DNA from: a virus
Lineage: Duplodnaviria; Heunggongvirae; Uroviricota; Caudoviricetes
Reading direction: 5' to 3' (one strand)
Length of the DNA: 15,661 nt
Virus record (IMG/VR): IMGVR_UViG_2724679238_000003
Coordinates: 1-15,661 of that record
Below, piece after piece: positions 1 through 14,741 of the stretch. Position 1 is the stretch's first letter. Every line of letters starts with the position of its first letter. The notes beneath the pieces are model-generated. The model was not told the origin of the DNA. It made no database searches and saw only the letters and a program-made list of their open reading frames with translations. The position numbers and the translations under genes are program-made.

Positions 1-263
1 ATCATTAGCGCGGTAAAAACCCGGTGTGCATCGTTTTTGATTATTTCCGCACACTCGCGCAGAGGAGTTCCCCATCGGGCTACGGTCATGGTTAATGCGG
101 GAATACAGCGACGATACAGCGCATGATGTGTCAGGCTTGAACACCTTTATCCGTTAAAAGGGATATCAGTTAAGTTATCCCGTGTAGGGTATAAGCCATT
201 ATCAAGCCCACCAGTAGATGGGCTTTGTAATGGAGAGCCGTTGTGAAAGTGGCTCTCAGACTG

Positions 264-467
264 TCATTTTTTCCCTTTCTGTTTACCTGCCCACTGTTTT
301 GCAATGTACAGGCAGTCATCGAAAATTCGGCCTTTTCTGCTGGCTTGTGAACAACGGCGGTAATGTTCCACCGCCATGTCAGCGCCAGTCATAGCCGCGT
401 TTTGGTCGTATCCAAACTTTATTAACTCGGTTGTTACATTTTTATGTATGAAATCAATCGGAGTCAT
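264..467 (-). CDS. hypothetical small protein (67 aa), translationally coupled to the upstream Rha-like gene
   Basis: ATG (plus cat 465..467) overlaps the upstream ORF's stop in an ATGA arrangement; lysine-rich C-terminus (KQKGKK); no family recognised. Confidence 0.5.
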   Translation of the reverse strand: MTPIDFIHKNVTTELIKFGYDQNAAMTGADMAVEHYRRCSQASRKGRIFDDCLYIAKQWAGKQKGKK

Positions 468-1060
468 GCTGGTTTACCATCAGGGAAATCCCCCATGTCA
501 CATAGCTTGAACTGAATCAGATCCTTCACAAGCTGCTCAGCCTTTTTAATGGCCTTCTTCTCTTTCTTCCGACGAGTCATGAGAGCGCTACCTGCTTGAC
601 CGTGCATTTCAAATGAGAACTTCTCAGCAGCCGCGACACGGTTTTGCATTTCGCTGATTGCCATATCGGTCAGGCCAGAGAAATCGAGAAGGTTAATGTC
701 CTTCCCCCCCTCAAGCTCAGTCATGTGGTCATACACCTGCGCCTGAAGCTCATAGCTGTAGCTCATTGCCATGAGGCAAGCTTCACGCTTGGGAAAATTG
801 TAAATATCCCTCTCCACAACACCACCTGTTCCGTTGATATAGGTATCAGTTGCAAAAAATTTTGCAGCTGCATCCCCGAGGACCTTGGGTACTTTCTTCA
901 TGAAACTGCGGTGTTCGAGTTTGCGATATTTCTTACAGGGGAACGCAAGCCCCTCCGCCTCCGCTTTGGATTTCCGATCAGCATTAATGTAATCCACCAT
1001 CTCAAGACTGCTCATGGTCGGGTATTCGCCAGAAGGAAGAACGGTTAATGATTTGTTCAT
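464..1060 (-). CDS. putative phage regulatory protein, Rha/antirepressor-like (198 aa); product tentative
   Basis: ATG at 1060 preceded by AAGGAAAT RBS; N-terminal region resembles the Rha-family winged-helix pattern from recall; sits after Rz where I recall lambda carrying bor. Confidence 0.55.
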   Translation of the reverse strand: MNKSLTVLPSGEYPTMSSLEMVDYINADRKSKAEAEGLAFPCKKYRKLEHRSFMKKVPKVLGDAAAKFFATDTYINGTGGVVERDIYNFPKREACLMAMSYSYELQAQVYDHMTELEGGKDINLLDFSGLTDMAISEMQNRVAAAEKFSFEMHGQAGSALMTRRKKEKKAIKKAEQLVKDLIQFKLCDMGDFPDGKPA

Positions 1061-1204
1061 GTCGGTATTTCCTTTAGAAAGTTGAGCCTGTTCGCACAGA
1101 AAAGCCGTCCCCGAGAGGTCCTCACCTATACGGCAGTTCTCAGGCTCAGCTTTCTGAAAGACTCGGGATTGTTACGCGCTGCGATACGCTGTGAAATTCA
1201 GATG

Positions 1205-1231
1205 TAAAAAAAGCCCCGCATCGCGAGGCTC
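1205..1231 (-). terminator. intrinsic terminator downstream of Rz/Rz1
   Basis: On minus strand: GCCTCGC-GAT-GCGGGGC stem-loop (7 bp incl. one G-U) followed by TTTTTTTA; lies just 3' of the Rz stop. Confidence 0.6.
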
Positions 1232-1262
1232 ATTAAATTGACTTTGTGATTTGCAAAAAAAA

Positions 1263-1700
1263 TTATTTCAGGCATTGCGTCCTGATGTATTCCTGCAGGT
1301 AGTTAACCTGCGCGGTTATCCTGTCGATTCCACTTCGGAGACGGTAATAATTGAGTTCAGCATCTGCTGTAAGTCTTGGGCTTTCTCCATCGCCCATGCT
1401 GCTGGCTTCGGTCGTTGACTTTGCACAGGTGGCGGCGACTTGCAGGCGCTTACGACCAGCAGAAACATCAGCACGGAGACTTTCGATAGTCGCGTTAGCA
1501 TCAGCAAGCTCCTTTGTGTATCTGGCGTCGAGTTCTGCTACATCACGTTGACGCCTCTGCATGTCAGCGATAATGGATGCGGCTTTATCGCGCTGCTCTT
1601 TGTAGGTCATGGCGTTATCACGGTAATGATTAACAGCCCATGACAGGCAGACGATGATGCAGATAACCAGAGCATAAATAATCGCGGCGACTCTGCTCAC
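1263..1700 (-). CDS. Rz: Rz i-spanin
   Basis: Translation from GTG 1700 ([29 protein letters not shown]...) closely matches lambda Rz as I recall it ([29 protein letters not shown]...); GTGA overlap with endolysin stop; GGGGGA RBS upstream. Track ORF begins at an upstream TTG (1715). Confidence 0.85.
1316..1501 (-). CDS. Rz1: Rz1 o-spanin lipoprotein, embedded in Rz in the +1 frame
   Basis: Embedded ORF with signal-peptide-like N-terminus, lipobox VSAC and proline-rich mature region ([16 protein letters not shown]), as in lambda Rz1; ATG at 1501. Confidence 0.75.
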
Positions 1701-2230
1701 TGATCTATCCCCCAACAGGCTAATGCGCTTTCCTGGTCACGACGAATAACCTGTCCATAGCAGTTATTTGAACGTATGCGGCAATCGCGCCCACCATCTT
1801 TTATCCACCAGCGAATCGCCTCGCATGCACCTTTACGATCACCGGCATTCAGCCGCTTATAAAACGTCGACGGGAAACACTTACCGGGGCCAATGTTATA
1901 GGGACAAAATGACGCTATACCCGCTTTCTGTGGTTCGGTCAGTGGCACTTTAATATTGCGCTCCACCCATGCCAGCGCCTTATCCCGTTCAATGGCGTTA
2001 ACCTGGTCGCATTTTTCCTTCGACAGTTTCATACCGGGAAAAACGGGTTTTCCATCCACCACCGTGGCACCCCGACAGATGGTCCAGATGCCGGAACCAT
2101 CGCGGTATGCCGTTGTGTGGTTACCTTCTTTTTCATCCAGAAACTGGTCGAGAATATCAGGCGCAGGCGCACCGACGGCAATCAGTGCCAGAACGGCAGC
2201 CGACAGGCCGTATCTGATTTTTGCGTTCAT
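1697..2230 (-). CDS. R: SAR endolysin, T4-lysozyme-like muramidase (phi21 R-type)
   Basis: 177 aa; N-terminal hydrophobic Gly/Ala-rich SAR segment ([17 protein letters not shown]) followed by a lysozyme-like E...D...T pattern ([24 protein letters not shown]); located between holin and Rz. Confidence 0.85.
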
Positions 2231-2335
2231 GGATATTTATCAGGATTTATCGGTTTCTGAACCCTGGATATGTTTATCTGTCCCGGCCTGTTGAATCAGG
2301 CAAGGAATAGTTAAATACAATAGAGAGGATTGTTT

Positions 2336-2608
2336 ATGGACAATAGCACCATTTCTCTACAGGAGTTGCTCGACTGCATTTCCAAGCTTCGGGATGATGT
2401 AAATGCCCTTACTGTCGCATTTTCATATCTGGCATTCTCAATTCCCAAGGAACAAATGCAACCAACACTGGCATCGCTCCAGCTTGAATCACTCAACCCC
2501 AAATGGTCCCAGCAACAACAAAATTCTTTCAAGTGGCTGGCGGTATTACTGGAAGAAAAATATGCTGGTGAAATTACCATTTCGGCGGAGTCTTCAGAGA
2601 ACCAGTAA
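2336..2608 (+). CDS. hypothetical protein (90 aa) encoded antisense to the lysis operon
   Basis: ATG 2336 with GAGAGGA RBS 6-7 nt upstream; helical-looking, protein-like composition; 3' end overlaps the convergent 114-aa ORF by 35 bp; not recognised. Confidence 0.45.
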   Translation: MDNSTISLQELLDCISKLRDDVNALTVAFSYLAFSIPKEQMQPTLASLQLESLNPKWSQQQQNSFKWLAVLLEEKYAGEITISAESSENQ

Positions 2609-2918
2609 TTCTTCCCGGTAGCTTTCCTTTGTAGGTTATCCACACATTCTGCGCCTCTAAAATTATGGGGCGCTTTTCCGGCGACAGCTCATCCCCTTCA
2701 CATAACCCGGCAGCAACATCCAGGAAGACCTGTCTGATGCTCCTTCTGGCTGCTGCCTCATAAAACTCCAGCGCGGCACCTTCAACACGGTCCAGCGAGA
2801 TGTCCAGGTCAAAAATTTCACCGTCAAAGCGTTTTTTGTCCCGTAACGCTAAAGTTACCGTAACTTTATTCTCAAAATTGCGGATCCCTTTCACAATCAG
2901 TTCATAGTTTTGAGTCAT
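2574..2918 (-). CDS. hypothetical protein (114 aa) inserted between holin and endolysin; possibly YdfR-like small prophage protein
   Basis: ATG 2918 with GGGGAGAG RBS; starts 5 nt after holin stop; resembles small proteins found in the holin-endolysin gap of E. coli cryptic prophages (weak recall). Confidence 0.55.
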   Translation of the reverse strand: MTQNYELIVKGIRNFENKVTVTLALRDKKRFDGEIFDLDISLDRVEGAALEFYEAAARRSIRQVFLDVAAGLCEGDELSPEKRPIILEAQNVWITYKGKLPGRITGSLKTPPKW

Positions 2919-2922
2919 TGAA

Positions 2923-3138
2923 TTACTCTCCCCGTGCAGCCTTACGCTTGTCTTCTTTAATCTTGAAATAAAGATTTGTCAGGTACGTCAGCAGGCCAAA
3001 AACCAAGCTCCCTAGCACACCTATCGCCACCCACTGGGATGGAGAGACTTTGTCCAGCAGCTGCAGTAACCAGTATCCCGTCCCCACCGCTGACGTGGTG
3101 TATGACACACCTGTTGTGATTTTTTCCATCTGGTACAT
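2923..3138 (-). CDS. S: pinholin (phi21 S-type class II holin) with dual-start motif
   Basis: 71 aa [71 protein letters not shown] closely matches phi21 S as recalled; two in-frame Met (3138 and 3129) typical of antiholin/holin; GGGAGA RBS. Track ORF extension to 3246 is judged spurious. Confidence 0.85.
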
Positions 3139-3170
3139 ACCCCGTCTCCCGTTATCCGGAAGCTGACAAC

Positions 3171-3203
3171 AATAAAAAAGCCACCAGTTAATTACTGATG
3201 GCT
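3171..3203 (-). terminator. terminator-like hairpin just upstream of the holin gene
   Basis: On minus strand: GCCATCAG-TAATTAA-CTGGTGGC stem (one G-U) followed by TTTTTTATTG. Confidence 0.4.
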
Positions 3204-3359
3204 CTGATGCATAAACGTCATAATACCTGACCATTATGATTGACAATAATTATAATGTTTATATAGAAATATCCCCGATATGTGTTACATATCATTTCTC
3301 CACGGGGTATATCCCTACGCCAGCGTAATCTTCTCTTCTACTACGCTGGCGTTTTTTTA

Positions 3360-5213
3360 TTATGATGCCGGTGCATTTATCTCCAGCATCAGACTTTCTA
3401 TCTCAACGCCATACGCTGCATTTTTTGTAACATCCGTCAGCGTCAGCGCATTCAGTCCCAGAGTCAGACTGTCTTTTATAACCTGGAATGCCGGGCCAGC
3501 CACTCCATTCAGTTTCGGAGTAACCGTGGCACTGCCGGCGGTGAACACCAGCTCCAGCGTCTGCCAGTCGTTACTGTAGCCCCCAAATTCCCCCAGCTTC
3601 GTGTTTCCTGCTTTCCTGTGATGCATCAGATTCAGTCTACCGTCAGTGGTCTGAGTGAAGTACGACATCAGGAACGGATTACCGGTACCCGTCATCGCCA
3701 CACCATCAGGAACGGGAGCGTCCGTATACAGATAAATCCCCAGCCCGAACTGATTATTAGTCAGAGCTCCAGACAGGCGGAACTTACAAGTCAGCCTGCC
3801 GCCCTGTGTCAGCAGGGTAATTGCGTCATCCACCGGATGCGCCAGGGACCAGGTTTTATTGCTCTGCTTGGTGATCTTAAATACACCATCTGCCAGCTGA
3901 ATTCCGCCATCTTTAATAGTCCAGCCCTGCGTAGCAGCCTCTCCGTCTGCCGGCAGCAGGGAGACTGTGCGGACGGATGTTTCGCTATCAGACGGCCCCG
4001 ATGGCGTATCGCCGCCGGGCGAGGGGTTGATTTCCGGTGCCTTACCACTGATGAAGGCTGAGGTGCGCCCGGCTGCGTTCAGAATAGCGGTTGCCAGGCG
4101 ATCCGAAATAATGCTCCTGCGCGCCCATGAACTAAAATGTGTCGGGCGGTTTGATGATACCCAGTTTCCATTCGTTCTCGATGCCGCACCGTAATATCCT
4201 GATGCCGGAATATCTGGATCTTCTGCCGGCGCATTAGTGGCGGTATTGACGCCGTTACCGTCTGTCATGAACGGCACAAAATAAACGCCCTCACTCTCCC
4301 TGTTTTTGTACGCCCCGTAAATGGTGTTGTACTGCGTGCCGTAGGTGTTTTTCCAGTAATACGTCGTGTCACCACAAATCCACGGCACATTTACAGCACT
4401 GCCACCATGACACTGCGCGTTAAACACAGTGAGGTCAGCACGAAACTGCTTCAGCATGGCTGTAAACAGAGCAGGTTGCTGTGCGTAGGTGGCGGCGCTC
4501 ATGTCAAACTCTCCCTGCATCCAGCACACCGCCAGCAACACATTTTTCTGGTTCTTCTGTAATGCAGCTTTGGTGCGCACAATCAGGTCCTGATATAACG
4601 GTTTACCCACACCCCAGCGCGCCGAATCCTGGCTGGCCCCCGTGTCCGCACTGAATGTCCCCTCCGCGCCCAGGGTAAATGCCGAACCACCACGACAGCA
4701 TGGTACCAGCAGGATCCCCGCATTATTCGGGATATACGGGAGCAGTTTTTTGGCAATATGAAGTCCCTGCCCCACACAGCCATACTGACCTTTGCTTAGG
4801 TCAGCCCTCGGATGATTCAGCGTACTCATATCCTGCACATCATGCAGACAGTGGTCAGCCGGGATGATGTCGTTATACGTACAACTCTCTCCACCCGGAG
4901 TTACCGTGCTGCGGCGCGCCAGCTGTTTAATGCGCGGATCCGGAGCATCGTAAGAATCCGGCAACGGAAGCCCTTCACCGTAGGCCATGCCGTTGGACTG
5001 TCCGGCAAGCACAACCACGTAGAACCAGTCCGGCTCAGATGAAGGGCCGACCTGTGGATCTCCTTCAATAGCCACCGCCTGCATCAGTGTGTACGGCGTA
5101 ATGGCAACCGGTCCGCCGTATGGCTGCCAGCCCTCTTTCAGCTTTTGTGTCAGTTTTTCCGCCAGATCTGACGGCGAGGAAGCCCTGACCAAATCATAAC
5201 GTTTAATCGACAT
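3360..5213 (-). CDS. nanS: NanS-p-like prophage sialate O-acetylesterase with N-terminal DUF1737-like region
   Basis: 617 aa from ATG 5213 (MSIKRYDLVRASSPSDLAEKLTQKLKEGWQPYGGP...); resembles the large esterase ORFs I recall downstream of stx in Stx prophages; sits between Q and the holin. Track ORF begins at upstream GTG 5231. Confidence 0.7.
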   Translation of the reverse strand: MSIKRYDLVRASSPSDLAEKLTQKLKEGWQPYGGPVAITPYTLMQAVAIEGDPQVGPSSEPDWFYVVVLAGQSNGMAYGEGLPLPDSYDAPDPRIKQLARRSTVTPGGESCTYNDIIPADHCLHDVQDMSTLNHPRADLSKGQYGCVGQGLHIAKKLLPYIPNNAGILLVPCCRGGSAFTLGAEGTFSADTGASQDSARWGVGKPLYQDLIVRTKAALQKNQKNVLLAVCWMQGEFDMSAATYAQQPALFTAMLKQFRADLTVFNAQCHGGSAVNVPWICGDTTYYWKNTYGTQYNTIYGAYKNRESEGVYFVPFMTDGNGVNTATNAPAEDPDIPASGYYGAASRTNGNWVSSNRPTHFSSWARRSIISDRLATAILNAAGRTSAFISGKAPEINPSPGGDTPSGPSDSETSVRTVSLLPADGEAATQGWTIKDGGIQLADGVFKITKQSNKTWSLAHPVDDAITLLTQGGRLTCKFRLSGALTNNQFGLGIYLYTDAPVPDGVAMTGTGNPFLMSYFTQTTDGRLNLMHHRKAGNTKLGEFGGYSNDWQTLELVFTAGSATVTPKLNGVAGPAFQVIKDSLTLGLNALTLTDVTKNAAYGVEIESLMLEINAPAS

Positions 5214-5547
5214 CAAATTTCTCTCATGCACAGGAATAAAGTAGGGAAAGGCCGGAGCAGGAACAGAAGAAAATCACAGGATGAACATCTGCCAATAGCA
5301 GGCCGTAAAAAAAGGCCGCGCCATGCGCAGCCAAAACTCACAAGGAAAATGATAACTGGAATAACAATTGTGATATACGCATGGTACCGGGAGCTTCCCG
5401 GTGAGTTCAGCCTGGTGCAACCGAACCCGCGTCAGCCGCCAATCGACAATTAATCGAAGTATTCGACATTCACCAGTCGCCCCCCCATACAGGGGAATTC
5501 ACCATGCAGAAATGTTTTTAATAAACAGCAAACAAAAAAATCAAGCA

Positions 5548-5649
5548 TTATTCAGTCTGTTTTTTCATCATAGGCCACAGCAATACCATAATGCTGCAGA
5601 CCAGAACGCCATCCGCCAGCACCGACATAATTCTGCTGGTGAAATCCAT
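5548..5649 (-). CDS. possible small hydrophobic peptide (33 aa); speculative
   Basis: Minus-strand ATG (plus cat 5647..5649) to TAA gives MDFTSRIMSVLADGVLVCSIMVLLWPMMKKQTE; one predicted TM helix with charged C-terminus; weak GGTGA RBS; below the ORF-track size cutoff. Confidence 0.2.
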   Translation of the reverse strand: MDFTSRIMSVLADGVLVCSIMVLLWPMMKKQTE

Positions 5650-5791
5650 TATCACCATCACTAAAAGCAGGATCACAACAGCAAGCAGACACGGTTTACA
5701 AAACAATGTTCAGAAAACGCATTCTGCATGTCTAAGGTTCTATTCCTACGAATAGCCAACTTGCAACTTAAAATATTATTTATGCAGCCAA

Positions 5792-6550
5792 TTAAATTCT
5801 GGTCCTTACAATATCAACCTGAAGATTCTTATCTTGTGCTGATTGATAAATGACAAACCTTTTACTACCTGCATTGAAAGAAGTAGACAAAACCAGACAA
5901 TTATCATAACGAGCAAGAACATAATACCAACCATCATTATAATTAATCATTTCATATTCTTTCTTAAACTGTGGTTTGTAATATCCTGTCAGAAATGAAA
6001 AAAGCCAGAAATATGCCACAAAAGCAATCATCACAATCTCAAAAAAATGTTTTTTTATAAATGGCTTATCATAGAAGCATGATACCGATAAAAATCGCCC
6101 ATAAGATCTTATCGAAATTGTAACCGCCAGCGCAATCGCTGCTGACAGTAGCAAAAGAGGTACCTGAATCTTCTGTCTCAATATAGAAAACTCAATAATT
6201 GCCGGCACAAACAATAATTCCACAGCAAAATAAAGGCGAAATACATTTAGCTCTTGCATAGAATGTTTTCTTTTCACTGCGAAAAAGAATACAACACCAA
6301 TACCCCAACCGATAAGAAATATAGCAATGACGATAACTGCAAAAAATAAACTTCTGGCAACATCATCAACACCTGCACCTACAATCCACCATGGGAAGCC
6401 GTAGTAAAAAGAAGTACCCCATCCATAGAAATAAGCACTCCCCCATCCAAGGCATCCCATATAGGCAATAAAAAGTGAAGAACTCCTGAGCAGCGCACCA
6501 TCCTTCATAACCACCCCAATACAAGATGATAACATTGGCTTACAACTCAT
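5792..6550 (-). CDS. hypothetical integral membrane protein (about 5 TM helices plus ~60-aa C-terminal soluble domain); cargo gene
   Basis: 252-aa ORF in a visibly AT-rich segment directly downstream of pR'/Q; several long hydrophobic stretches; start ambiguous (ATG 6550 has no RBS, internal Met15 has GGGGTGG upstream); no family recognised. Confidence 0.6.
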   Translation of the reverse strand: MSCKPMLSSCIGVVMKDGALLRSSSLFIAYMGCLGWGSAYFYGWGTSFYYGFPWWIVGAGVDDVARSLFFAVIVIAIFLIGWGIGVVFFFAVKRKHSMQELNVFRLYFAVELLFVPAIIEFSILRQKIQVPLLLLSAAIALAVTISIRSYGRFLSVSCFYDKPFIKKHFFEIVMIAFVAYFWLFSFLTGYYKPQFKKEYEMINYNDGWYYVLARYDNCLVLSTSFNAGSKRFVIYQSAQDKNLQVDIVRTRI

Positions 6551-6699
6551 AACAAAAGCAATTCAATGCCGTCAAGAGGTTACAGGCTAAAAAAACTCTA
6601 TTACATTGCAGTCAGCATGTTTACTACACAAATACAATTCAGGGCATAAAAACTACTCGGTGGCAGGTTATTGAGATTCATCAATGGCAGGCAAAAAAC

Positions 6700-6745
6700 A
6701 CCCATTGTTGGCGTCAAATTTACCCAAAGTTATTCAAAAAGTCAA
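6700..6745 (-). promoter_or_regulatory. late promoter pR' with overlapping qut (Q-utilisation) region
   Basis: Minus strand reads TTGACTTTTTGAATAACTTTGGGTAAATTTGAC, matching lambda pR' -35 TTGACT / -10 TAAATT as recalled; 40-90 bp downstream of Q stop. Confidence 0.65.
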
Positions 6746-6787
6746 TATTATGCCATTAATACGTTGCCATCCGTGGCAATCATGCTG

Positions 6788-7411
6788 CTAACGTGTGACC
6801 GTATTCAAAATGTTGTCTGCAATTGACTCTTCCTTGTGGCATTGCACCACCAGAGCGTCATACAGCGGCTTAACAGTGCGTGACCAGGTGGGTTGGGTAA
6901 GGTTTGGGATTAGCATCGTCACAGCGCGATATGCGGCGCTTGCTGGCATCCTTGAATAGCCGATGCCTTTGCATCTTCCGCACTCTTTCTCGACAACTCT
7001 CCCCCACTGCTCTGTTTTGGCTATATCAACCGCACGGCCTGTACCGTGGCAATCTCTGCATCTTGCGCCCGGCGTCGCGGCACTACGGCAATAATCCGCA
7101 TAAGCGAATGTTGCGAGCACTTGCAGCACCTTTGCCTTAGTATTTCCTTCAAGCTTTGCCACACCACGGTATTTCCCCGATACCTTGTGTGCAAATTGCA
7201 TCAGATAGTTGATGGCCTTTTGTTTGTCTTTCTGGCTGAGTTCGTGCTTACCGCAGAATGCAGCCATTCCGAATCCGGCTTGTGATTGCGCCATCCCCAT
7301 AGCAGCCATCACATCAGTACCGGAAAGAGAGTCAGAAGCCGTAGCCCGTGGTGAGTCGCTCATCATCGGGCTTTTTGGCGAATGAAATTTAGCTACGCTT
7401 TCGAGTCTCAT
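6788..7411 (-). CDS. Q: late gene antiterminator Q (lambda type)
   Basis: 207 aa, same length as lambda Q and recognisably the same protein; ATG 7411 with GGGAGAAGG RBS; ATGA overlap with ninI stop. Confidence 0.93.
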
Positions 7412-8073
7412 GCGCCTTCTCCCTGTACCTGAATCAATGTGAGGTTTCCGCAGAACACTGCGCCAGTATCGATATACATCTGGTTGGCAAACTTGAGTGG
7501 TTTCACTGCTGGCGTATGACCAAAGATGAACGTGTCCGCGCCTTTAATTTCTTTCACGATCCCGTCTTGTGAGTTGCTGATTCGTTCGCGGTTCCAGATT
7601 ACCTGCTGATGATCAACTGGCTTTCCAAATTCGTATTCGTCACAAGGATAATCGGCGTGGCAGATGACATATTTTTTACCTTTGCTCACCAGTTCGATGA
7701 TTAACGGAAGTTCTTCTGCTTTATGGGCAAGAGCTTTAGCCAGAATTTCTTTGTCGTAATCGAGATTAAAGAACCAGCCACCGCCATTAAGCAGCCAGTG
7801 ATTGACGTTTCCACGCTCTGATAAGCCATCAATCATCATTTGCTCATGGTTTCCACGTACAACTCTGAACCAGGGGAATGTGATTAATTCCAGACATTCA
7901 ACGTTCTCTGTACCGCGATCAACCAAATCGCCCACCGAGATAAGCAGGTCTTTTTTGTTATCGAATCCAATCGTATCCAGTTTGTTCATCAGGTTCGTGT
8001 AGCATCCGTGCAGGTCGCCAGCTACCCAAATATTTCGGTATTTGCTGCCATCAATTCTTTCGTAATAGCACAT
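7408..8073 (-). CDS. ninI: NinI Ser/Thr protein phosphatase (lambda PPase, calcineurin-like metallophosphatase)
   Basis: 221 aa from ATG 8073 ([25 protein letters not shown]...GNHE...); metallophosphatase motifs GDLHG, GDLVDRG, GNHE visible; overlaps ninH 3' end by 23 nt as in lambda. Confidence 0.9.
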
Positions 8074-8257
8074 CTCTTTCACTCCATCCGCGATGAACCA
8101 TGAGAACGTCGTTGACGATGGCGTGCATTTTCCCGTCTTTATCATCAACGTATTTTCTGACCGTACCGCGACTACATTTCAGTCTGCGTGCTACTTCTGT
8201 CTGGTTTCCGTATGCTTCAACGAGCATGTCTGGAATGGTTTTTACTGAGAACGTCAT
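8051..8257 (-). CDS. ninH: NinH
   Basis: 68 aa, same size and position as lambda NinH; ATGA overlap with ninG stop. Confidence 0.88.
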
Positions 8258-8859
8258 GCGGCCTCACTTCTGCTATTTCGCAGGTCTTTGAGTTTCTGTT
8301 GGTACTCTGCCTTGATCGCCTTGCACTCTTCGACAGTCCAGCGATGGCGGCTATGGTTTGATTCGATTTCGTCTACTGCTTCCTGCCCGATGCGGTTAAT
8401 CAGTTCGACTCGATACGGAACGAGATTTCCGCTTTTGTGCTGGTTGCACACCACGCATTGCTTGTGAATATTGCGTTCATCAAATCGGAGTTGAGGTGCC
8501 GCAGCAGTTGTCCGGTAATGTCCGGCATCCCACTGAGCAGACGTGAGCGTTCCGCACGAGATACATGGTAAGTCGCGGTCTCTTTCTCTGATGAAGGCGT
8601 TTACGGCTTGTTGGGCTTGTTTAATCCAGTAACTGCGGGGCTTTAAGGCGAGTTTTCGAATCTTAAGTTTATCTTTCTGTTTCTGTTCATCTCGTCGTCG
8701 TTTCTTCTCTGCTGCTTTTTCCGCTTTTTCGCGTTCTTTACTTCGTCGTTCGAGTGCTAATTGAGTTCCGTGTTCCGGGCAGCACCACCACTGATTTGAG
8801 AATGCCGGGTGAAACCATTCCTTGCATATTTTGCATTTCCTTCGCGCTGGTTTAGCCAT
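8254..8859 (-). CDS. ninG: NinG (Rap) recombination-associated endonuclease
   Basis: 201 aa, Cys-rich N- and C-terminal regions and lysine-rich central helix as in lambda NinG; conserved position. Confidence 0.9.
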
Positions 8860-9022
8860 CGTCTTCTTCCTCGTGCATCGAGCTATTCGGAGCGCTCATC
8901 AGTTCTGCGCAGCAGTGCTCACACACGTGAACTTCCAGCACATGCAGCTTCTGACCGCAGTTAGCGCACGTTAAAGCTCGCTCGACGCTTTCTTGTTCGT
9001 AACTTCGATTTTGGTCAATCAC
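8852..9022 (-). CDS. ninF: NinF
   Basis: 56 aa from GTG 9022 ([27 protein letters not shown]...); GTGA overlap with ninE stop; same length as lambda NinF. Track ORF begins at upstream ATG 9064. Confidence 0.8.
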
Positions 9023-9201
9023 CTTGTTTTCCTCGCACGATGTCTTAGCCACCGGATATCCCACAGGTGAGCCGTGTAGTTGAAGGTTTTTACGTCAGAT
9101 TCTTTTGGGATTGGCTTGCGTTTATTTCTGGAGCGTTTCGTTGGAAGGTATTTGCAGTTTTCGCAGATTATGTCGGTGATACTTCGTCGCTGTCGCCTCA
9201 T
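9019..9201 (-). CDS. ninE: NinE
   Basis: 60 aa from ATG 9201 ([30 protein letters not shown]...), matching lambda NinE; ATGA overlap with the methyltransferase stop. Confidence 0.9.
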
Positions 9202-9725
9202 GCCGCCCTCCTGACGCCATGCCCGATTGCCATCAATGCCGCTTTGGATACGGTAGTAAACATCCGTCGAGGACTGATGAACGGTCGCCAAATCAGCAGC
9301 ATGGAGCCTTTGCTGTTTCCCTTCTTCTCCAGCCCTGTCGATGGTTCGATAAAATTAATCCGTCCATCAGTGATAATGCGAACTTCGTCAACGCTCTCCA
9401 GAGCCTTGCTGAACCAGCCGACAGACATATCTTCTGGCACAAGCATCACTACCGCCTGTCGCTGTTGTATGCACTGCTCAGCGGCTTTTTCCACCCACGG
9501 TCTGATATTACTGTACGGTGGGTTATTCCAGATTGCACCGTGGCTTACCCACTCAGAATTGAGCGCGTCGTCAGCCTCAGTTAGCCAGTGAGCACACAGA
9601 GCATTTTTGTCGCTCGCTGCCGAATCCAGCCAGAATCCAAACTCAATATCCAGTGCATCAAAAAGCCAAAGCGGCGTTTGCCAGCAGTCCTTGTCGTGTG
9701 CTGGCGTATTTGATTTGATAGTCAT
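9198..9725 (-). CDS. phage DNA N6-adenine methyltransferase (Dam-type, orphan)
   Basis: 175 aa from ATG 9725 ([25 protein letters not shown]...); NPPYS motif (D/NPPY catalytic motif IV); ATGA overlaps with ninB stop upstream and ninE start downstream; no adjacent restriction endonuclease gene. Confidence 0.8.
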
Positions 9726-10162
9726 GCAGCCCGATCTCCCCATCGCGCTCTCCATTCGAGAGCCAGTCGCGCTTCGTCTGACCACTTAACGCCACGCTCT
9801 GTACCGAATGCCTGTATAAGCTCTAATAGCTCCGCAAATTCGCTTACACGCATCCTGCTGGTTGACTGGCCTATTACCACAAAGCCATTCCCGGCAAGGT
9901 TAGGAACAACGTCCTGCTGCTTTAATGCTGCTGTAAAAACGCACTTCCAGCTTTCTGCATCCAGCCAGCGACCATGCCATTCAACCTGACGAGAGACGTC
10001 ACCAAGGCAAGCCCAAAGCTTTCGATTCTGGTCTAAGCTGCGGTTGCGTTCCTGAATGGTTACTACGATTGGTTTGGTTGGGTCTGGAAGGATTTGCTGT
10101 ACTGCGTGAATAGCGTTTTGCTGATGTGCCGGAGATCGAATTTCAAAGGTTAGTTTTTTCAT
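9722..10162 (-). CDS. ninB: NinB (Orf-family recombination mediator)
   Basis: 146 aa from ATG 10162 (MKKLTFEIRSPAHQQNAIHAVQQILPDPTKP...), matching lambda NinB; RBS GGGAGAGGGAAG. Confidence 0.9.
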   Translation of the reverse strand: MKKLTFEIRSPAHQQNAIHAVQQILPDPTKPIVVTIQERNRSLDQNRKLWACLGDVSRQVEWHGRWLDAESWKCVFTAALKQQDVVPNLAGNGFVVIGQSTSRMRVSEFAELLELIQAFGTERGVKWSDEARLALEWRARWGDRAA

Positions 10163-10177
10163 GACTTCCCTCTCCCC

Positions 10178-10211
10178 CAAATAAAAAGGCCTGCGATTAC
10201 CAGCAGGCCTG
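10178..10211 (-). terminator. intrinsic terminator between ren and ninB (tR2 equivalent)
   Basis: On minus strand: AGGCCTGC-TGGTAATC-GCAGGCCT perfect 8-bp stem followed by TTTTTATTT. Confidence 0.65.
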
Positions 10212-10235
10212 TTATTAGCTCAGTGATGTAGATGG

Positions 10236-10526
10236 TCATCTTTTAACTCCATATACCGCCAATACCCGTTTCATCGCTGCACTCTGGCGACACTCCTTAA
10301 AAATCAGGTTCGTGCTCATCTTTCCTTCCCGTTCTTCCCTGGTAGCAAACCGGTAATACACCGTTCGCCAGACCTTACCTTCGATAACCAGAAGACCTGC
10401 CCGTGCCATTTTAGCCGCGGCCTGATTTATGCTGGTTACGGTTGCGCCTGTTAGCGCGGCAACGTCCGGCGCACAGAAGCTATTATGCGTCCCCAGGTAA
10501 TGAATAATTGCCTCTTTGCCCGTCAT
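10236..10526 (-). CDS. ren: Ren (Rex exclusion resistance protein)
   Basis: 96 aa, same length and position as lambda Ren; ATGA overlap with P stop. Confidence 0.88.
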   Translation of the reverse strand: MTGKEAIIHYLGTHNSFCAPDVAALTGATVTSINQAAAKMARAGLLVIEGKVWRTVYYRFATREEREGKMSTNLIFKECRQSAAMKRVLAVYGVKR

Positions 10527-11224
10527 ACACTTGCTCCTTTCAGTCCGAACTTAGCTTTAATTTCTGCGATCTTCGCCAGAGCCTGTGCACGATTTAGAGG
10601 TCTGCCGCCCATAACAGGAAGTTGCTTTACGGGTTCAGGTATCGTCTCACCACGGTTAATTCGCGCGGTCATACAGGTCAGTTCATCGGCAGCCTTGCGC
10701 CGTAATTCCGCATCAGTAAGCGCATTGGCCCGCATGTTCTGATACAGGTTGGTAACCAGCCAGTAGTGCGCGTTTGATTTCCACGGATAAGACTCCGCAT
10801 CCGGATACAGGCCTCGCTTCCGGCAATACTCGTAAACCATATCAACCAGCTCGCTGACGTTTGGCAGTCCGGCGATAACGGATGCTTCTTCCCGGCACCA
10901 TGCAACAAACTGCCCGGGTGATGGCAGAAATGGTCGATTCTGCCGACGGGCTACGCGCATTCCTGCGTTAACCTGTTCCATTGTGGTGATCCCGTTTTCC
11001 CGGAAAGCCAGAACCCACTGGCGGCGAATTTCGTTCAGTTCGTTCTGGTCACGGTTAGCCAGACTCGCCGGGAAAGTTGCCAGTAACTGGCTGAACACAC
11101 CGTTGATGATCTGCGCTACCTGCTGTACCTGCGGCTTTTCGTCGTACTGTTCCGGCATGTTGTTGGCGATCCGACGCATCTGCTCACGGTCAAAGTTAAC
11201 CATCTGTGCGGCGATGTTTTTCAT
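10523..11224 (-). CDS. P: replication protein P (DnaB helicase loader)
   Basis: 233 aa, same length as lambda P and recognisably the same sequence; ATGA overlap with O stop. Confidence 0.93.
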   Translation of the reverse strand: MKNIAAQMVNFDREQMRRIANNMPEQYDEKPQVQQVAQIINGVFSQLLATFPASLANRDQNELNEIRRQWVLAFRENGITTMEQVNAGMRVARRQNRPFLPSPGQFVAWCREEASVIAGLPNVSELVDMVYEYCRKRGLYPDAESYPWKSNAHYWLVTNLYQNMRANALTDAELRRKAADELTCMTARINRGETIPEPVKQLPVMGGRPLNRAQALAKIAEIKAKFGLKGASV

Positions 11225-12120
11225 AGATCCACCCCGTAAATCCAGTCTGTGTTTGTCAGGTCGAGTTTTGGTTTACTGGCTGTCACGACTGCCTGTTGCT
11301 TGTTACGGTTGATTTCGAGCTGGGTCCACTTGTCGCGGAGTTTGGCCGGGCTAAGCACGTTACCGGACCAGAAGTTGTCCTGGCATGCCCAGCGGAACAG
11401 CACGCACATGTCGCGGTGGTTACGTCCGTCACGTTCACGCATCAGGCGGATATCGTTAGCCCACCCTGCAAAATTCGGTTTTCTGGCTGATGGCGCGATG
11501 GTCTTCACCATGTCAAACATCCACTCTGCGGCGGTCAGGTCTTCTGCTGTCCCCCACTTGCTGCCGCTCTGAATTGCAGCATCCGGTTTAACCACAGAAA
11601 GATCGTTTTCTGGCTGGTCAGAGGATTCGCCAGAATTCTCGGACGAATAATCTTTTCTTTTTTCTTTTGTAATAGTGTCTTTTGTGTCCCCCTGTTTTGA
11701 GGGATAGAAATCCCCCAATTTGAGGGATGTTTTATCCCTCGTTTTAGGGGATTTTCCCTCGTTTTGAGGGATGCACCATTCTGAGATGTTTTTATTTGGT
11801 CCAAACATGCCGCATTGCTGCTTGATAATATTCATTCTGACGAGTTCTAACTTGGCTTCATTGCACCGTTTGACGGGTAACTTTGTAATCTCGCTAAGTT
11901 GAGAATCGGTGATTCTGTCCATTGGTTTATTCCACCCATAGGTTTTACGCAGAATGGCAAGCAGCACTTTAAACTGTCGCTTGGTCAGATCTGCGCCTGA
12001 ATAAGCCTCAAGCAGCATATTTGATAGTCTGGCGTAACCATCATCGAGATCTGCCACATTACGCTCCTGTTTGGCAAAGTTACCTCTGCAGAAGTTGAGT
12101 ATTTTTGCTGTATTTGTCAT
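11221..12120 (-). CDS. O: replication initiator O
   Basis: 299 aa from ATG 12120 (MTNTAKILNFCRGNFAKQERNVADLDDGYARLSNMLLEAY...), matching lambda O; AGGAG RBS; contains the iteron array in its central part. Track ORF starts further upstream. Confidence 0.93.
   Translation of the reverse strand: MTNTAKILNFCRGNFAKQERNVADLDDGYARLSNMLLEAYSGADLTKRQFKVLLAILRKTYGWNKPMDRITDSQLSEITKLPVKRCNEAKLELVRMNIIKQQCGMFGPNKNISEWCIPQNEGKSPKTRDKTSLKLGDFYPSKQGDTKDTITKEKRKDYSSENSGESSDQPENDLSVVKPDAAIQSGSKWGTAEDLTAAEWMFDMVKTIAPSARKPNFAGWANDIRLMRERDGRNHRDMCVLFRWACQDNFWSGNVLSPAKLRDKWTQLEINRNKQQAVVTASKPKLDLTNTDWIYGVDL
11645..11775. repeat. origin of replication (ori-lambda type): four ~19-bp palindromic iterons plus adjacent A/T-rich region, inside the O gene
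   Basis: Four spaced repeats of the form TCCC(T/C)C-N5-7-GAGGGA at about 11687, 11710, 11734 and 11755, flanked at 11645-11686 by an A/T-rich tract (tcttttcttttttcttttgtaatagtgtcttttgtg). Confidence 0.85.
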
Positions 12121-12154
12121 AATGACTCCTGTGGATTGATCCAGTCTTTCTACA

Positions 12155-12433
12155 TCAGGCCTCAAAACTGTTGCAGCAGTCTTGAGGCTTTTCTTTTGTC
12201 AGCACCATGGCTACTTTCTTTGCCAGCTCCGCTAATTCCTCGTCTTCAACACCCCACTCCAGCACAGCCAGAAGCATGGCCATCTTTGGGATAAAGCTGT
12301 CTTTCCATCGCGAAATTTGCGATTCATTAATCCCTAATGCATCAGCAACCTTTCGCTGACCACGTACAGCAATTCGATTTAGGATGTTGCTTGTAATTGC
12401 ATTCGCTTTCTTGCGAGTACTTGTAAGTTGCAT
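12155..12433 (-). CDS. cII: CII-type transcriptional activator (P22 c1-like)
   Basis: 92 aa from ATG 12433 (MQLTSTRKKANAITSNILNRIAVRGQRKVADALGINESQISRWK...), HTH region and C-terminus similar to lambda CII/P22 C1; AGGA RBS. Track ORF extended upstream. Confidence 0.85.
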   Translation of the reverse strand: MQLTSTRKKANAITSNILNRIAVRGQRKVADALGINESQISRWKDSFIPKMAMLLAVLEWGVEDEELAELAKKVAMVLTKEKPQDCCNSFEA

Positions 12434-12490
12434 ATGTAAGTATTTCCTTAACAAATAAGAAGTTATACGCACCAACTGATGCGCGTTGTA

Positions 12491-12534
12491 TTCCCGCATT
12501 TCGGCGGGAATGAGGACCATGACTGTTAAAGAGC
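12491..12534 (-). promoter_or_regulatory. nutR (boxA + boxB) N-utilisation site
   Basis: Minus strand reads GCTCTTTAAC (boxA-like) - 14 nt - TTCCCGCCGAAATGCGGGAA (boxB stem-loop); the same boxA and identical stem-loop recur upstream of N on the plus strand. Confidence 0.65.
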
Positions 12535-12541
12535 AATTTGC

Positions 12542-12727
12542 TTATGCCGCTTTGCGATAAGCACTTTCTTGATACTTCAGGGCGCCAGCTGTAACGACTT
12601 CCAGTCGATAGGCGTCTTTCTCTGGGATGACTTCCTTCCACTGAGAGACTGCTGCATCGCTAATGCCTAACGCTTTAGCTACCGCACGCTGGGTTCCGAA
12701 GTGGTCGATAACATCTTTCTTGTACAT
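12542..12727 (-). CDS. cro: Cro repressor (P22 type)
   Basis: 61 aa MYKKDVIDHFGTQRAVAKALGISDAAVSQWKEVIPEKDAYRLEVVTAGALKYQESAYRKAA, matching P22 Cro as recalled; GGAG RBS; divergent from the repressor gene. Confidence 0.9.
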   Translation of the reverse strand: MYKKDVIDHFGTQRAVAKALGISDAAVSQWKEVIPEKDAYRLEVVTAGALKYQESAYRKAA

Positions 12728-12807
12728 AGACTCGCTCCAAAATTAAAGAACACTTAAATTATCTGTCAAAGGAATCTTAAGTCAAGTTTATTTAAGATAT
12801 CTTAACT
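12728..12807. promoter_or_regulatory. OR operator/promoter region (pR toward cro, pRM toward repressor)
   Basis: Three 18-bp sites fitting the P22-type pattern nnTnAAG-N4-CTTnAnn (about 12742-12759, 12775-12792, 12790-12807); minus-strand TTGACA -17 nt- TTAATT upstream of cro; repressor ATG 12808 has no SD (leaderless-like). Confidence 0.7.
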
Positions 12808-13458
12808 ATGAATACACAACTGATGGGTGAGCGTATTCGCGCTCGCAGAAAAGAACTCAAGATTAGGCAGGCTGCCCTTGGCAAGATGGTTGGCGTGTCT
12901 AATGTTGCTATTTCCCAATGGGAGCGTTCTGAAACTGAGCCCAATGGCGAAAACCTATTGGCCTTAGCCAAGGCTTTGCAGTGTTCCCCTGATTACTTGT
13001 TGAAAGGAGAAGATAGTCTTTCAAACATTGCCTATCACAGCAGGCATGATCCAAGAGGTTCGTATCCTCTAATTAGTTGGGTAAGCGCAGGATGTTGGAT
13101 GGAAGCTGTAGAGCCATATCATAAGCGTGCAATAGATAACTGGTACGATACAACCGTAGATTGTTCAGAAGATTCGTTTTGGCTGGACGTAAAAGGTGAT
13201 TCGATGACGGCTCCAGCCGGTCTTAGCATCCCTGAAGGGATGATAATACTCGTCGATCCTGAAGTAGAACCTCGTAATGGGAAGCTGGTAGTGGCAAAGC
13301 TCGAAGGAGAAAACGAGGCAACTTTCAAGAAGTTAGTTATTGATGCTGGCAGGAGGTTTCTAAAACCACTTAACCCACAATATCCGATGATTGAGATCAA
13401 CGGGAACTGCAAAATCATCGGTGTAGTTGTCGATGCAAAAATAGCAAACCTTCCATAA
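12808..13458 (+). CDS. cI: prophage repressor, P22 C2 type (HTH plus LexA-like S24 autopeptidase domain)
   Basis: 216 aa, recognisably P22 C2 (MNTQLMGERIRARRKELKIRQAALGKMVGVSNVAISQWERSETEPNGENLLALAKALQCSPDYLL...); Ser in GDSM and Lys in VVAKLEG consistent with the S24 catalytic dyad. Confidence 0.93.
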   Translation: MNTQLMGERIRARRKELKIRQAALGKMVGVSNVAISQWERSETEPNGENLLALAKALQCSPDYLLKGEDSLSNIAYHSRHDPRGSYPLISWVSAGCWMEAVEPYHKRAIDNWYDTTVDCSEDSFWLDVKGDSMTAPAGLSIPEGMIILVDPEVEPRNGKLVVAKLEGENEATFKKLVIDAGRRFLKPLNPQYPMIEINGNCKIIGVVVDAKIANLP

Positions 13459-13480
13459 GGGGCATTCGCCCCTTTTTTCT
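13458..13480 (+). terminator. intrinsic terminator immediately after the repressor gene
   Basis: AGGGGC-ATTC-GCCCCT stem-loop followed by TTTTTTCTTTCC, starting at the repressor stop codon. Confidence 0.65.
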
Positions 13481-13520
13481 TTCCTTTAAAAATCAAAGCA
13501 AAACTTAAGTCCTGCAATAA

Positions 13521-13580
13521 AATTTAAGTTTTCTTCAAAAACACTCTTGACCACAAATTAAAGAAATCTTAAATTTAAGT
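13521..13580 (+). promoter_or_regulatory. OL operators and pL promoter
   Basis: Two 18-bp P22-type operator-like sites (13521-13538 atttaagttttcttcaaa; 13556-13573 attaaagaaatcttaaat); TTGACC (13546-13551) -17 nt- TAAATT (13569-13574) reading toward N. Confidence 0.6.
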
Positions 13581-13621
13581 CATCAGCAGGACGCTGGTAG
13601 CCAAACGGAACAGATTGGCAG

Positions 13622-13663
13622 GCTCTTTAACATTGATGGGATTGTCCCGCCGAAATGCGGGAA
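13622..13663 (+). promoter_or_regulatory. nutL (boxA + boxB)
   Basis: GCTCTTTAAC boxA-like at 13622-13631, then 13 nt, then TCCCGCCGAAATGCGGGA stem-loop (13645-13662), identical to the element between cro and cII. Confidence 0.65.
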
Positions 13664-13715
13664 CCAAAGAGTAGTTGGCTTTGGGGTGATGTGAAGTGCA
13701 GCCGCGCGACAGCAT

Positions 13716-13770
13716 CAGGGAATTAACCTCCCCCCCCCCCCCACAGGGAATTAACCCCCCCCCCCCCCCC
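13716..13770 (+). repeat. tandem direct repeat, each copy CAGGGAATTAACC followed by a long poly-C tract (13 C and 16 C), in the N leader
   Basis: Directly visible: cagggaattaacct + C13 (13730-13742), then cagggaattaa + C16 (13755-13770); about 40 bp upstream of the N start codon. Confidence 0.9.
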
Positions 13771-13807
13771 GTCACGTCACCGCTAAAGTCAATCATCGGA
13801 GGTCAAC

Positions 13808-14107
13808 ATGACAGTAGTCATTACATATCTGGCTGACGATAACGCCAGAAATCGCCGCAGAGCACGCAGACAGGCTCAACGTGAACAGGCAATGCAAGAG
13901 CAGCGACTGGCGCGAAAGATTGCGCTAAAGCTCTCTGGTTGCGTCAGAGCAGATAAAGCAGCATCACTCGGAAGCCTTCGCTGCCAGAAGGCAGAAGAAG
14001 TCGAGCGTAAACAGAACCGTATTTACTACCGCAAGCCACGCAGTGAAATGGGTGTGACTTGTGTTGGTCGCCAGAAAATGAAATTAGGCAGCAAACCACT
14101 TATTTGA
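13808..14107 (+). CDS. N: N-type transcription antiterminator (phi21-like)
   Basis: 99 aa with arginine-rich N-terminus (NARNRRRARRQAQREQAMQEQRLARK) and C-terminal half matching phi21 N as recalled (...RKIALKLSGCVRADKAASLGSLRC..KAEEVERKQNRIYY.KPRSEMGVTCVGRQK.KLGSKPLI); GGAGG RBS; downstream of pL and nutL. Confidence 0.85.
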   Translation: MTVVITYLADDNARNRRRARRQAQREQAMQEQRLARKIALKLSGCVRADKAASLGSLRCQKAEEVERKQNRIYYRKPRSEMGVTCVGRQKMKLGSKPLI

Positions 14108-14115
14108 GGTGATAT

Positions 14116-14565: not shown

Positions 14566-14569
14566 TTTC

Positions 14570-14596
14570 AGGCCGCATAGTCGGCCTTTATTTTTG
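14570..14596 (+). terminator. intrinsic terminator after the 149-aa membrane protein gene
   Basis: AGGCCG-CATAGT-CGGCCT stem-loop followed by TTATTTTTGG. Confidence 0.6.
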
Positions 14597-14624
14597 GCAT
14601 AAACAACAGAATAAACACTGCACT

Positions 14625-14652
14625 GTGTATTCATTCCAACGAGTGAATACAC
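14625..14652. other. 28-bp near-perfect palindrome (12-bp arms, 4-nt centre) in the early-left intergenic region
   Basis: GTGTATTCATTC-CAAC-GAGTGAATACAC; arms complementary with one mismatch. Confidence 0.5.
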
Positions 14653-14714
14653 GGAGCAATGTCGCTCGTAACTAAACAGGAGCCGACTTGTTCTGATTAT
14701 TGGAAATCTTCTTT

Positions 14715-14741
14715 GCCCTCTAATGTGAGGGCGATTTTTTA
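14715..14741 (+). terminator. intrinsic terminator about 20 bp upstream of the ea10-like gene
   Basis: GCCCTC-TAATGT-GAGGGC stem-loop followed by GATTTTTTATC. Confidence 0.55.

Follow-up and report, generated by a model that had tools for sequence, protein, structure and literature searches.

A TfpB/STM1630-family membrane-protein cassette in the stx-equivalent slot of a lambdoid phage, a candidate lysogenic-conversion moron

The sequence analysed here is a 15,661-nucleotide (nt) stretch of tailed-phage DNA (Caudoviricetes; IMG/VR record IMGVR_UViG_2724679238_000003, positions 1 to 15,661), called the window below. The region of interest within it is the AT-rich segment at 5214-6787, between the late-gene antiterminator gene Q and a nanS-p gene. 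A cassette appears to have been inserted there directly 3' of pR', a late promoter of the lambda type, at the site occupied by the toxin genes in Shiga toxin (Stx) phages, and its main gene, tfpB, codes for a membrane protein of the TfpB/STM1630 family. We hold with modest confidence, on the sequence comparisons and structural model described below, that the cassette is a lysogenic-conversion moron with its own promoter, encoding a non-enzymatic inner-membrane envelope protein that would benefit the host. That confidence belongs to the composite statement; for any specific target of the protein it is much lower.

The unit would run from a promoter-like element through the 238-residue tfpB gene and a 52-residue DUF3927 gene to the small RNA STnc100 with its closing terminator. 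Lysogens would make TfpB from a sigma-70 promoter of the cassette itself and probably also by read-through from pR', because the usual terminator tR' is apparently missing and pR' is constitutive in lambda. On induction, Q would boost expression of the cassette, and it would be required only for transcription to continue past the STnc100 terminator towards nanS-p and the lysis genes. The protein may act as an adapter in the inner membrane, with some envelope component bound by its periplasmic beta domain and conserved first hairpin, and the benefit would lie in envelope or host adaptation of the bacterium and not in phage replication or lysis. The features of the region and of its two borders are as follows.

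6788..7411, minus strand: late-gene antiterminator gene Q, lambda type, upstream border of the slot (PF03589, E = 2e-56)
6717..6745, minus strand: late promoter pR', lambda type, TTGACT-17-TAAATT (promoter scan and alignment with lambda, which has the same hexamers)
6576..6716, minus strand: pR' leader without a recognisable tR' (alignment with phage 434; folding z-scores)
6546..6575, minus strand: candidate promoter of the cassette, TTGACG, 18-nt spacer with TGn, TATGAG (comparative conservation)
5792..6508, minus strand: TfpB/STM1630-family gene (PF27470), 238 residues, five predicted transmembrane helices (longest open reading frame, ORF, reaches to 6550)
5548..5706, minus strand: small ORF for a two-helix membrane protein, 52 residues, TTG start, DUF3927/TciB-like (Pfam PF13064)
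5303..5536, minus strand: STnc100/PasD-family prophage small RNA (Rfam RF02076)
5305..5332, minus strand: intrinsic terminator, 8-bp stem (7 G-C pairs) and U7, 3' end of STnc100 (terminator scan)
3360..5213, minus strand: NanS-p-type sialate O-acetylesterase gene, downstream border of the slot (Pfam DUF1737, SASA and DUF6645)

Composition and borders of the slot

The guanine plus cytosine (GC) content of the region was 39.3%, compared with 47.4% for the whole window, 51.6% for Q and 54.6% for nanS-p, and this profile bore out the original prediction of an AT-rich segment between the Q stop and a NanS-like gene. The tfpB gene itself had 36.1% GC, with 30% at third codon positions against 52-59% in the flanking genes. 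Its GC content was lower than that of every other 717-bp segment of the sequence (minimum elsewhere 36.7%; z = -2.9).

Both borders were as predicted. Upstream, 203 of the 207 residues of Q are those of lambda Q (98%), and a lambda-type pR' is present. Downstream, the nanS-p gene, which starts at the methionine of MSIKRYD in both the PGAP and the phage 434 annotations, has the expected NanS-p domains and is followed by the lysis cassette, with a gene for a P21-type holin (PF04971, 2923-3246) and then those for a DUF1327 protein, lysozyme and Rz. The slot had been called stx-equivalent, which agrees with the position of STnc100 in Stx2 phages, 75 nt downstream of stx2B (PMC12370729); in the window, pR' and STnc100 enclose the cassette. 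No tRNAs of the kind carried by Stx phages were found in the slot.

Identity, start and conservation of tfpB

The minus-strand ORF of 252 codons (5792..6550) was present as first described. Its reading frame is real, while the protein most likely has 238 residues and not 252, with the start at Met15 (6508). Nearly all homologues have 236-238 residues, PGAP starts a near-identical gene at the equivalent of Met15, and a Shine-Dalgarno-like GGGG/GAGG is conserved before the Met15 ATG. In addition, the ATG of the 252-codon ORF, at 6550, falls within a promoter-like -10 element that is itself conserved.

A precomputed PF27470 (TfpB) match was found on 103 of 103 homologues, including 100% identical ones, and a protein matching at 99.6% over 238 residues (tblastn) carries the PGAP/RefSeq name "STM1630 family protein". 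Direct Pfam-A and NCBIfam scans of the 238-residue protein gave no match in releases that predate the PF27470 model, and PHROGs returned only families of "unknown function", some of them fragment families. The protein is 100% identical to CPT_434_68 of phage 434 ("putative membrane protein", OL657226) and to the prophage copy WP_001302581 of Escherichia coli O157:H7 EDL933. The original prediction had presented the protein as unrecognised and undescribed. It is in fact curated as a family and annotated both in phage 434 and in enterohaemorrhagic E. coli (EHEC); our literature search found no paper on the role of the TfpB/STM1630 family. Public records already list and annotate tfpB, the small ORF and the small RNA, and the announcement of the phage 434 genome already mentions morons in it (PMC9119081).

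The DNA of the gene was found in 693 of 5426 complete E. coli genomes; an IS1 element lies inside the matched region of one E. coli genome. The family is small, with 75 relatives in a profile search of 1.84 billion representative proteins, and its distant members (20-29% identity) come from Moraxella, many Pasteurellaceae and some Neisseriaceae. The protein of Acinetobacter baylyi named "TfpB" was rejected as a relative, being an unrelated PilB-like ATPase that shares the name only.

The pairwise ratio of nonsynonymous to synonymous substitution rates (dN/dS) against homologues of 46-68% identity was 0.12-0.20, and all of the eight copies examined had intact ORFs of 237-238 residues. Frameshifts in close relatives had been named beforehand as grounds for doubting the gene; the ORF was intact, with purifying selection, in each context examined. 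Because of the low dN/dS, we take these comparisons to show that tfpB is a functional protein-coding gene under purifying selection. That it might instead be a decaying, non-functional ORF carried along by hitch-hiking is hardly credible to us. Truncated copies occur in databases and as PHROG fragment families, the IS1 element lies in one matched region, and STM1630 gave no phenotype in Salmonella, all of which would fit decay. The dN/dS values, the kept length and the invariant aromatic and glycine motifs across the 46-68% identical homologues speak against it, as does the 100% conservation of the protein in EDL933 and in 80 viral contigs (the best-matching IMG/VR contigs with a 100% identical protein, to which all viral-contig counts below refer).

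Predicted structure of the protein

A first AlphaFold2 run with 24 close homologues gave a mean predicted local distance difference test score (pLDDT) of 59; it was set aside and replaced by a run with 55 diverse sequences, which reached a pLDDT of 80.7 and a predicted template modelling score of 0.75. The model has five long helices (residues 4-36, 47-79, 84-111, 116-137 and 155-181) and a C-terminal domain of five strands (184-235, about 55 residues), in good agreement with the earlier description of about five transmembrane helices and a tail of some 60 residues. The loops carry 11 Lys and Arg on one side and 2 on the other, and by this positive-inside count the N-terminus would be cytoplasmic and the C-terminal beta domain periplasmic.

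Two segments are best conserved: the first helical hairpin (AY.YGWG..S.YYGFPWW..G.DD.ARSL) and a stretch just past helix 5 (YKPQFKKEYE...WYYVLARYD..L.LSKS). In the 55-sequence alignment G175 was the sole invariant residue, the near-invariant positions were Ala, Tyr, Gly and Pro, and no conserved candidate catalytic or polar residue was found across this family alignment. From the lack of any invariant polar or catalytic residue in the family, we infer that the protein is non-enzymatic and more likely binds or scaffolds a partner on the periplasmic side of the inner membrane.

Foldseek against the PDB gave a best E-value of 0.9, with weak MscS-like and SH3-like matches (integrase C-terminal domain, KorB) that were not trusted. 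The best match in a structure search of BFVD had E = 0.08 over 66 columns, and the family profile had no match among PDB sequences. PADLOC, with 5027 models, returned no match for the TfpB-family protein, the DUF3927 protein or NanS-p. Homology to a characterised housekeeping phage protein, which would have told against a cargo gene, was found in none of the profile, PHROG, PADLOC and structure searches.

Candidate promoter of the cassette

The candidate promoter at 6546..6575 was recognised by its conservation. The pattern CTTGAC(G/T)...TGnTAT keeps a constant spacing to the start codon across five contexts with unrelated upstream DNA, namely the window, phage 434, an E. coli prophage with a 68% homologue, a heat-labile toxin (LT) plasmid of enterotoxigenic E. 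coli (ETEC) and the iroBC island. It also aligns with the promoter of Salmonella STM1630, which has a mapped start site and whose -10 box is disrupted by two single-nucleotide polymorphisms in ST313 strains with an inactivated gene (bioRxiv 10.1101/689075).

The late promoter and its leader

Base-by-base alignment showed that homology with lambda covers Q and pR' and ends a few bases past the transcription start. An AACAAT -10-like element (AACGAT in lambda) follows 3' of pR' and may serve, as in lambda, as the pause element of Q loading. A U6 run lies at about +12 to +17 of the pR' transcript, presumably the site where lambda RNA polymerase pauses for Q loading.

Identity with phage 434 starts at about 6666, within the tR' hairpin of that phage, and the 3' half of the hairpin is kept in the leader at about 6650-6672. 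The 434 hairpin has a folding energy of -13.3 kcal/mol (z = -3.3), and its equivalent in the window has -3.9 kcal/mol (z = +0.3). The whole pR' leader folds no better than shuffled sequences (z = +0.19); lambda 6S RNA has z = -3.0 and ends in a hairpin and a U-run. These comparisons suggest that only a remnant of tR' remains, at a recombination joint of a lambda-type pR' with 434-like DNA. When each U-run from pR' to nanS-p was scanned, the first strong terminator 3' of pR' was that of STnc100. The same junction of pR' and a leader without recognisable tR' (6540-6712 in the window, minus strand) was seen in EDL933 and, judged by spacing, in 46 of the 47 viral contigs with a lambda-type Q.

The DUF3927 gene and the STnc100 small RNA

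The original prediction had left 578 bp of the region without a long ORF. This description did not hold up, as the stretch is occupied by the 52-residue DUF3927 ORF and the STnc100 small RNA, both of which had been overlooked. The ORF matches PF13064 with E = 1.7e-15 (57.1 bits against a cutoff of 25; profile positions 8-50 of 53) and phrog_1470, "TciB-like"; RefSeq names it a DUF3927 family protein, and the phage 434 record has it as TciB. A DUF3927 gene lies 3' of tfpB in 79 of the 80 viral contigs. Beside the diverged tfpB homologues it is absent, so that it accompanies only the cassette of the 434/EHEC type. An obligate TfpB-DUF3927 pair was ruled out, with no DUF3927 gene beside the Salmonella, Shigella and ETEC homologues.

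STnc100 matched RF02076 over model positions 1-206 of 206 with 95.8 bits (gathering score 47; E = 4.8e-21), and its stretch folds better than shuffled sequences (z = -2.75). The terminator that closes it (5332-5305; -19.4 kcal/mol, z = -2.9) is the only strong one in the region, and the same element is annotated in phage 434. In 11 related loci that were scanned, STnc100 reached the gathering threshold twice and stayed below it nine times, phage 434 included; by this measure the small-RNA content 3' of the cassette is variable among relatives. Among relatives of the cassette, some have STnc100 (145 bits) directly next to the anti-GcvB small RNA AgvB, which is on the opposite strand (locus positions 6978-7230). 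The PasD/STnc100 family is treated elsewhere (bioRxiv 10.64898/2026.05.13.724894; PMC12370729).

A third small gene, the 62-residue CPT_434_70 of phage 434 (8060-8248 of the 434 record), was rejected: it has a TTG start, its frame is not kept in the window, and its DNA is that of STnc100. Its annotation as a "putative membrane protein" is likely an artefact, as it overlaps the small RNA and its terminator.

Genomic contexts and mobility of the family

The cassette follows a lambda-type Q at a distance of 282-283 nt in 47 of the 80 viral contigs and a Q82-type Q, as in phage 434, at 214-216 nt in 32 of them, with LpxR before Q. Diverged homologues in E. coli are preceded by a third type of Q (PF06530), in the order Q, methylase, TfpB, LpxR, PmrD, NanS, and in Yersinia the order is NinG, PF06530-type Q, TfpB. 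Because the cassette and its homologues sit behind three unrelated antiterminators, the slot position itself appears to be favoured.

The clear-plaque phage 434B, which derives from 434 and is viable, has DLP12 DNA in place of the whole block of Q, late promoter and lysis genes (PMC9119081). The replaced stretch, given as a misc_feature of the 434 record, covers CPT_434_68, tciB and nanS. In lambda only the 6S region and orf-64 lie between Q and S. Because 434B is viable without the block and lambda has only these elements there, the cassette is accessory and dispensable for lytic growth of the phage. The prediction of a horizontally acquired accessory gene thus finds support in the identical cassette behind two Q/pR' modules, in diverged copies elsewhere and in the absence of the cassette from 434B.

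The same observations bear on a role in lysis, as an antiholin-like or lysis-timing protein made from the pR' transcript together with the lysis cassette. A membrane protein encoded on the late transcript ahead of the genes for holin, DUF1327 protein, endolysin and Rz would suit such a modulator. We nevertheless consider it very improbable, as both lambda and 434B lyse without tfpB, the 1.85-kb nanS-p gene and a strong terminator separate tfpB from the holin gene, and homologues are frequent on plasmids and chromosomes without lysis genes. Moreover, the TfpB-family protein had no match to a holin family in Pfam, and the endolysin gene is not adjacent.

Outside phages the family turns up in varied surroundings. 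In Salmonella, STM1630 and the effector gene sseJ are divergent; STM1630 was picked for study on the basis of intramacrophage RNA-seq data (bioRxiv 10.1101/689075) and is listed in the literature among genes co-regulated with Salmonella pathogenicity island 2 (SPI-2). The Citrobacter rodentium copy is syntenic with it and divergent from lpxR. On ETEC plasmids with LT and STb genes, a tfpB copy lies about 0.9 kb from eltAB and near estB. Among Shigella plasmids, 106 records, virulence plasmid pWR100 included, have a homologue among insertion sequence elements, and one record annotates it as "TfpB protein". In islands of the type found in extraintestinal pathogenic E. coli a homologue lies between iroBC and bor, and a distant clade of Klebsiella and Enterobacter has it in prophages, with SRAP and umuDC-like genes as neighbours.

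The homologue of Moraxella lacunata has a promoterless pilin copy on one side and a complete type IV pilin gene on the other, with the gene for the Piv recombinase next to it; pilin-flanked homologues with a Piv invertase gene nearby were found in this species and also in M. equi and M. oblonga. The Moraxella homologue is the ORF known as tfpB in the pilin inversion region, from which the Pfam name derives. To our knowledge the older literature assigns no function to this ORF, and a literature search gave nothing on it. Homologues of Pasteurellaceae have housekeeping neighbours with no common partner. When the neighbours of 33 analysed loci from Moraxellaceae, Pasteurellaceae and Neisseriaceae were clustered, no shared neighbour gene was found outside the Moraxella pilins, which ruled out a conserved partner gene across these loci. 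Common to the contexts of the family are animal-associated hosts, mobile or island DNA, virulence or envelope neighbours and a stand-alone gene.

The lipid A deacylase gene lpxR was repeatedly found near or adjoining TfpB-family genes. It is convergent to tfpB in an E. coli prophage (locus positions 5972-6919), with pmrD alongside in one of three loci; it is the divergent neighbour in C. rodentium (locus positions 3863-4823); and it lies just upstream of Q in phage 434 (4708-5667) and in 31 of the 80 viral contigs. Q and LpxR are listed as conserved neighbours of PasD (bioRxiv 10.64898/2026.05.13.724894). The proximity of lpxR and tfpB could reflect joint hitch-hiking or a functional link. Aggregatibacter actinomycetemcomitans and Mannheimia glucosida have two or more diverged TfpB-family paralogues in their small genomes, and some of the A. 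actinomycetemcomitans copies lie beside a polysaccharide gene of the GDP-mannose dehydratase type.

These neighbourhoods also bear on superinfection exclusion or anti-phage defence, in which a prophage inner-membrane protein would block phage DNA entry or trigger abortive infection, with the DUF3927/TciB-like protein as a possible partner. We regard this as possible, if rather unlikely. Instead of defence genes, the neighbours include genes for toxins, effectors, siderophores and lipid A modification; the DUF3927 partner is missing from all diverged contexts, none of the PADLOC models matched, and the chromosomal orthologue that is syntenic in Salmonella and C. rodentium is listed with SPI-2-co-regulated genes. 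On the other side, tfpB is prophage-borne and AT-rich, has a candidate promoter of its own and encodes a membrane protein of a size and kind typical of exclusion genes, and the DUF3927 protein matches a TciB-like PHROG. In addition, the Moraxella homologue stands among pilin genes, and type IV pili are phage receptors (PMC11841053).

Comparison with known systems

The window shares the order tfpB, DUF3927, terminator, nanS-p, holin with phage 434 (CPT_434_68) and EDL933 (WP_001302581). EDL933 also has the same lambda-type Q junction, whereas phage 434 has a Q82-type Q, an intact tR' hairpin and LpxR just upstream in place of the lambda Q/pR' and hairpin remnant of the window. STM1630 is 46% identical over 238 residues and is likewise AT-rich and stand-alone, with its own promoter and a virulence-gene neighbour in sseJ. 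It differs in being chromosomal, in its synteny with C. rodentium and in lying outside any prophage late operon.

The TfpB proteins of Moraxella bovis and M. lacunata match the family profile with E = 1e-41 to 1e-19, are of similar length and share the N-terminal hairpin AY.YGWG..YYG.PWW and a C-terminal Y-Y-x-L motif. Their identity is 20-29%, and they are encoded between type IV pilin copies near Piv, whereas the window has no pilin context. This kinship raises the alternative of an accessory or modulator of type IV filaments (type IV pili or the pseudopilus of type II secretion), which would alter piliation or toxin secretion of the host. The family name, taken from the Moraxella tfpB ORF, and the pilin-flanked genes of the three Moraxella species point this way. 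The ETEC copies close to eltAB would also fit, LT being, as is generally known, exported by type II secretion. So would the TfpY/FimB-like proteins of Pseudomonas aeruginosa and Dichelobacter nodosus, membrane proteins of 235-245 residues with N-terminal membrane helices, a periplasmic C-terminal domain and no known enzymatic motif, which have been proposed in the literature as inner-membrane adapters. By their published description, on which our comparison was based, TfpY/FimB proteins nevertheless combine three helices with a periplasmic domain of alpha/beta type (beta-alpha-beta and an antiparallel sheet) that makes up about half of the protein, in contrast to the five helices and 55-residue all-beta domain modelled here. 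Their genes always adjoin the major pilin gene, and the window has no pilin gene. Outside Moraxella there is no pilin or secretion neighbour, the 33 analysed loci share no partner, and Salmonella Typhimurium and Shigella are not known to have the relevant filaments. A filament role therefore strikes us as distinctly doubtful.

The stx2AB moron of Stx2 phages is likewise placed between Q/pR' and STnc100, nanS-p and the lysis genes, and is likewise unneeded for phage growth. It encodes a secreted AB5 toxin and carries tRNAs, whereas the cargo of the window consists of membrane proteins. Stx phages retain a tR' that yields the small RNA StxS.

Morons are units of a promoter, one or more genes and a terminator, with deviant base composition, that lie between conserved phage genes and are expressed in the lysogen. 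The cassette of the window shows an insertion site of this kind with dispensability, deviant GC content and a terminator of its own, shared with STnc100. It resembles the classical lambdoid morons (bor, lom, HK97 gp15) in its deviant composition, its terminator and its place between conserved phage genes, and may do so in having a promoter of its own; it differs from them in lying inside the late operon, right behind pR', and in also carrying a small RNA.

Other features of the window

A second AT-rich stretch (14100-15130, plus strand, 36-39% GC) lies in the early-left operon and holds an ORF of 149 residues with no Pfam match (14116-14565) and a DUF2528 ORF (14761-15129); it may be another moron. 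The Rfam element Lambda_thermo, the cIII thermoregulator, was found at 15189-15247 (plus strand, 88.5 bits), as in lambda.

Discussion

Several points weigh against the reading that tfpB is the envelope-protein gene of a lysogenic-conversion moron with its own promoter. The missing tR' is suggestive in a limited sense, in that a simple terminator scan overlooks lambda's own tR' too. Promoter-like sites in the region are at chance level (4 found, 4.7 expected), and the cassette's own promoter is a candidate drawn from comparative conservation. The topology comes from a charge count made by hand, not from a dedicated predictor; "non-enzymatic" is an argument from missing conserved residues; and the structural comparison covered the PDB and BFVD, beyond which a relative with a known role may exist. 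In Salmonella, deletion of STM1630 caused no growth defect in LB and did not reduce replication in macrophages, where, of the genes tested, such a reduction was seen for STM2475 only (bioRxiv 10.1101/689075). A motility phenotype of STM1630 from a screen was re-examined in the literature with cassette-free deletions, the authors suspecting polar effects.

A bolder proposal, which we think unlikely, would make the TfpB/STM1630 family an unrecognised class of mobile-element inner-membrane effectors, confined to animal-associated Proteobacteria, whose periplasmic SH3-like domain acts on some surface or envelope machine, for instance to tune type IV filaments or block phage DNA entry. In this prophage lineage the loss of tR' would turn pR' into a lysogen promoter for a tfpB-DUF3927-STnc100 transcript, from which the small RNA would be freed as the 3' end, like StxS.

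For the biology of these phages, the apparent loss of tR' would be a simple route by which a slot in the late operon comes to be expressed in lysogens. Identical copies of the gene occupy the toxin slot both of EHEC O157 prophages and of the classic phage 434, and relatives of tfpB are found on the Shigella invasion plasmid, by the LT genes of ETEC, beside sseJ in Salmonella and in the pilin switch of Moraxella. Among the cargo genes of enteric pathogens without an assigned role, tfpB is one of the commonest. As a conserved, stand-alone membrane protein of broad distribution with no structural relative in the PDB, TfpB would be a reasonable first target for functional study.

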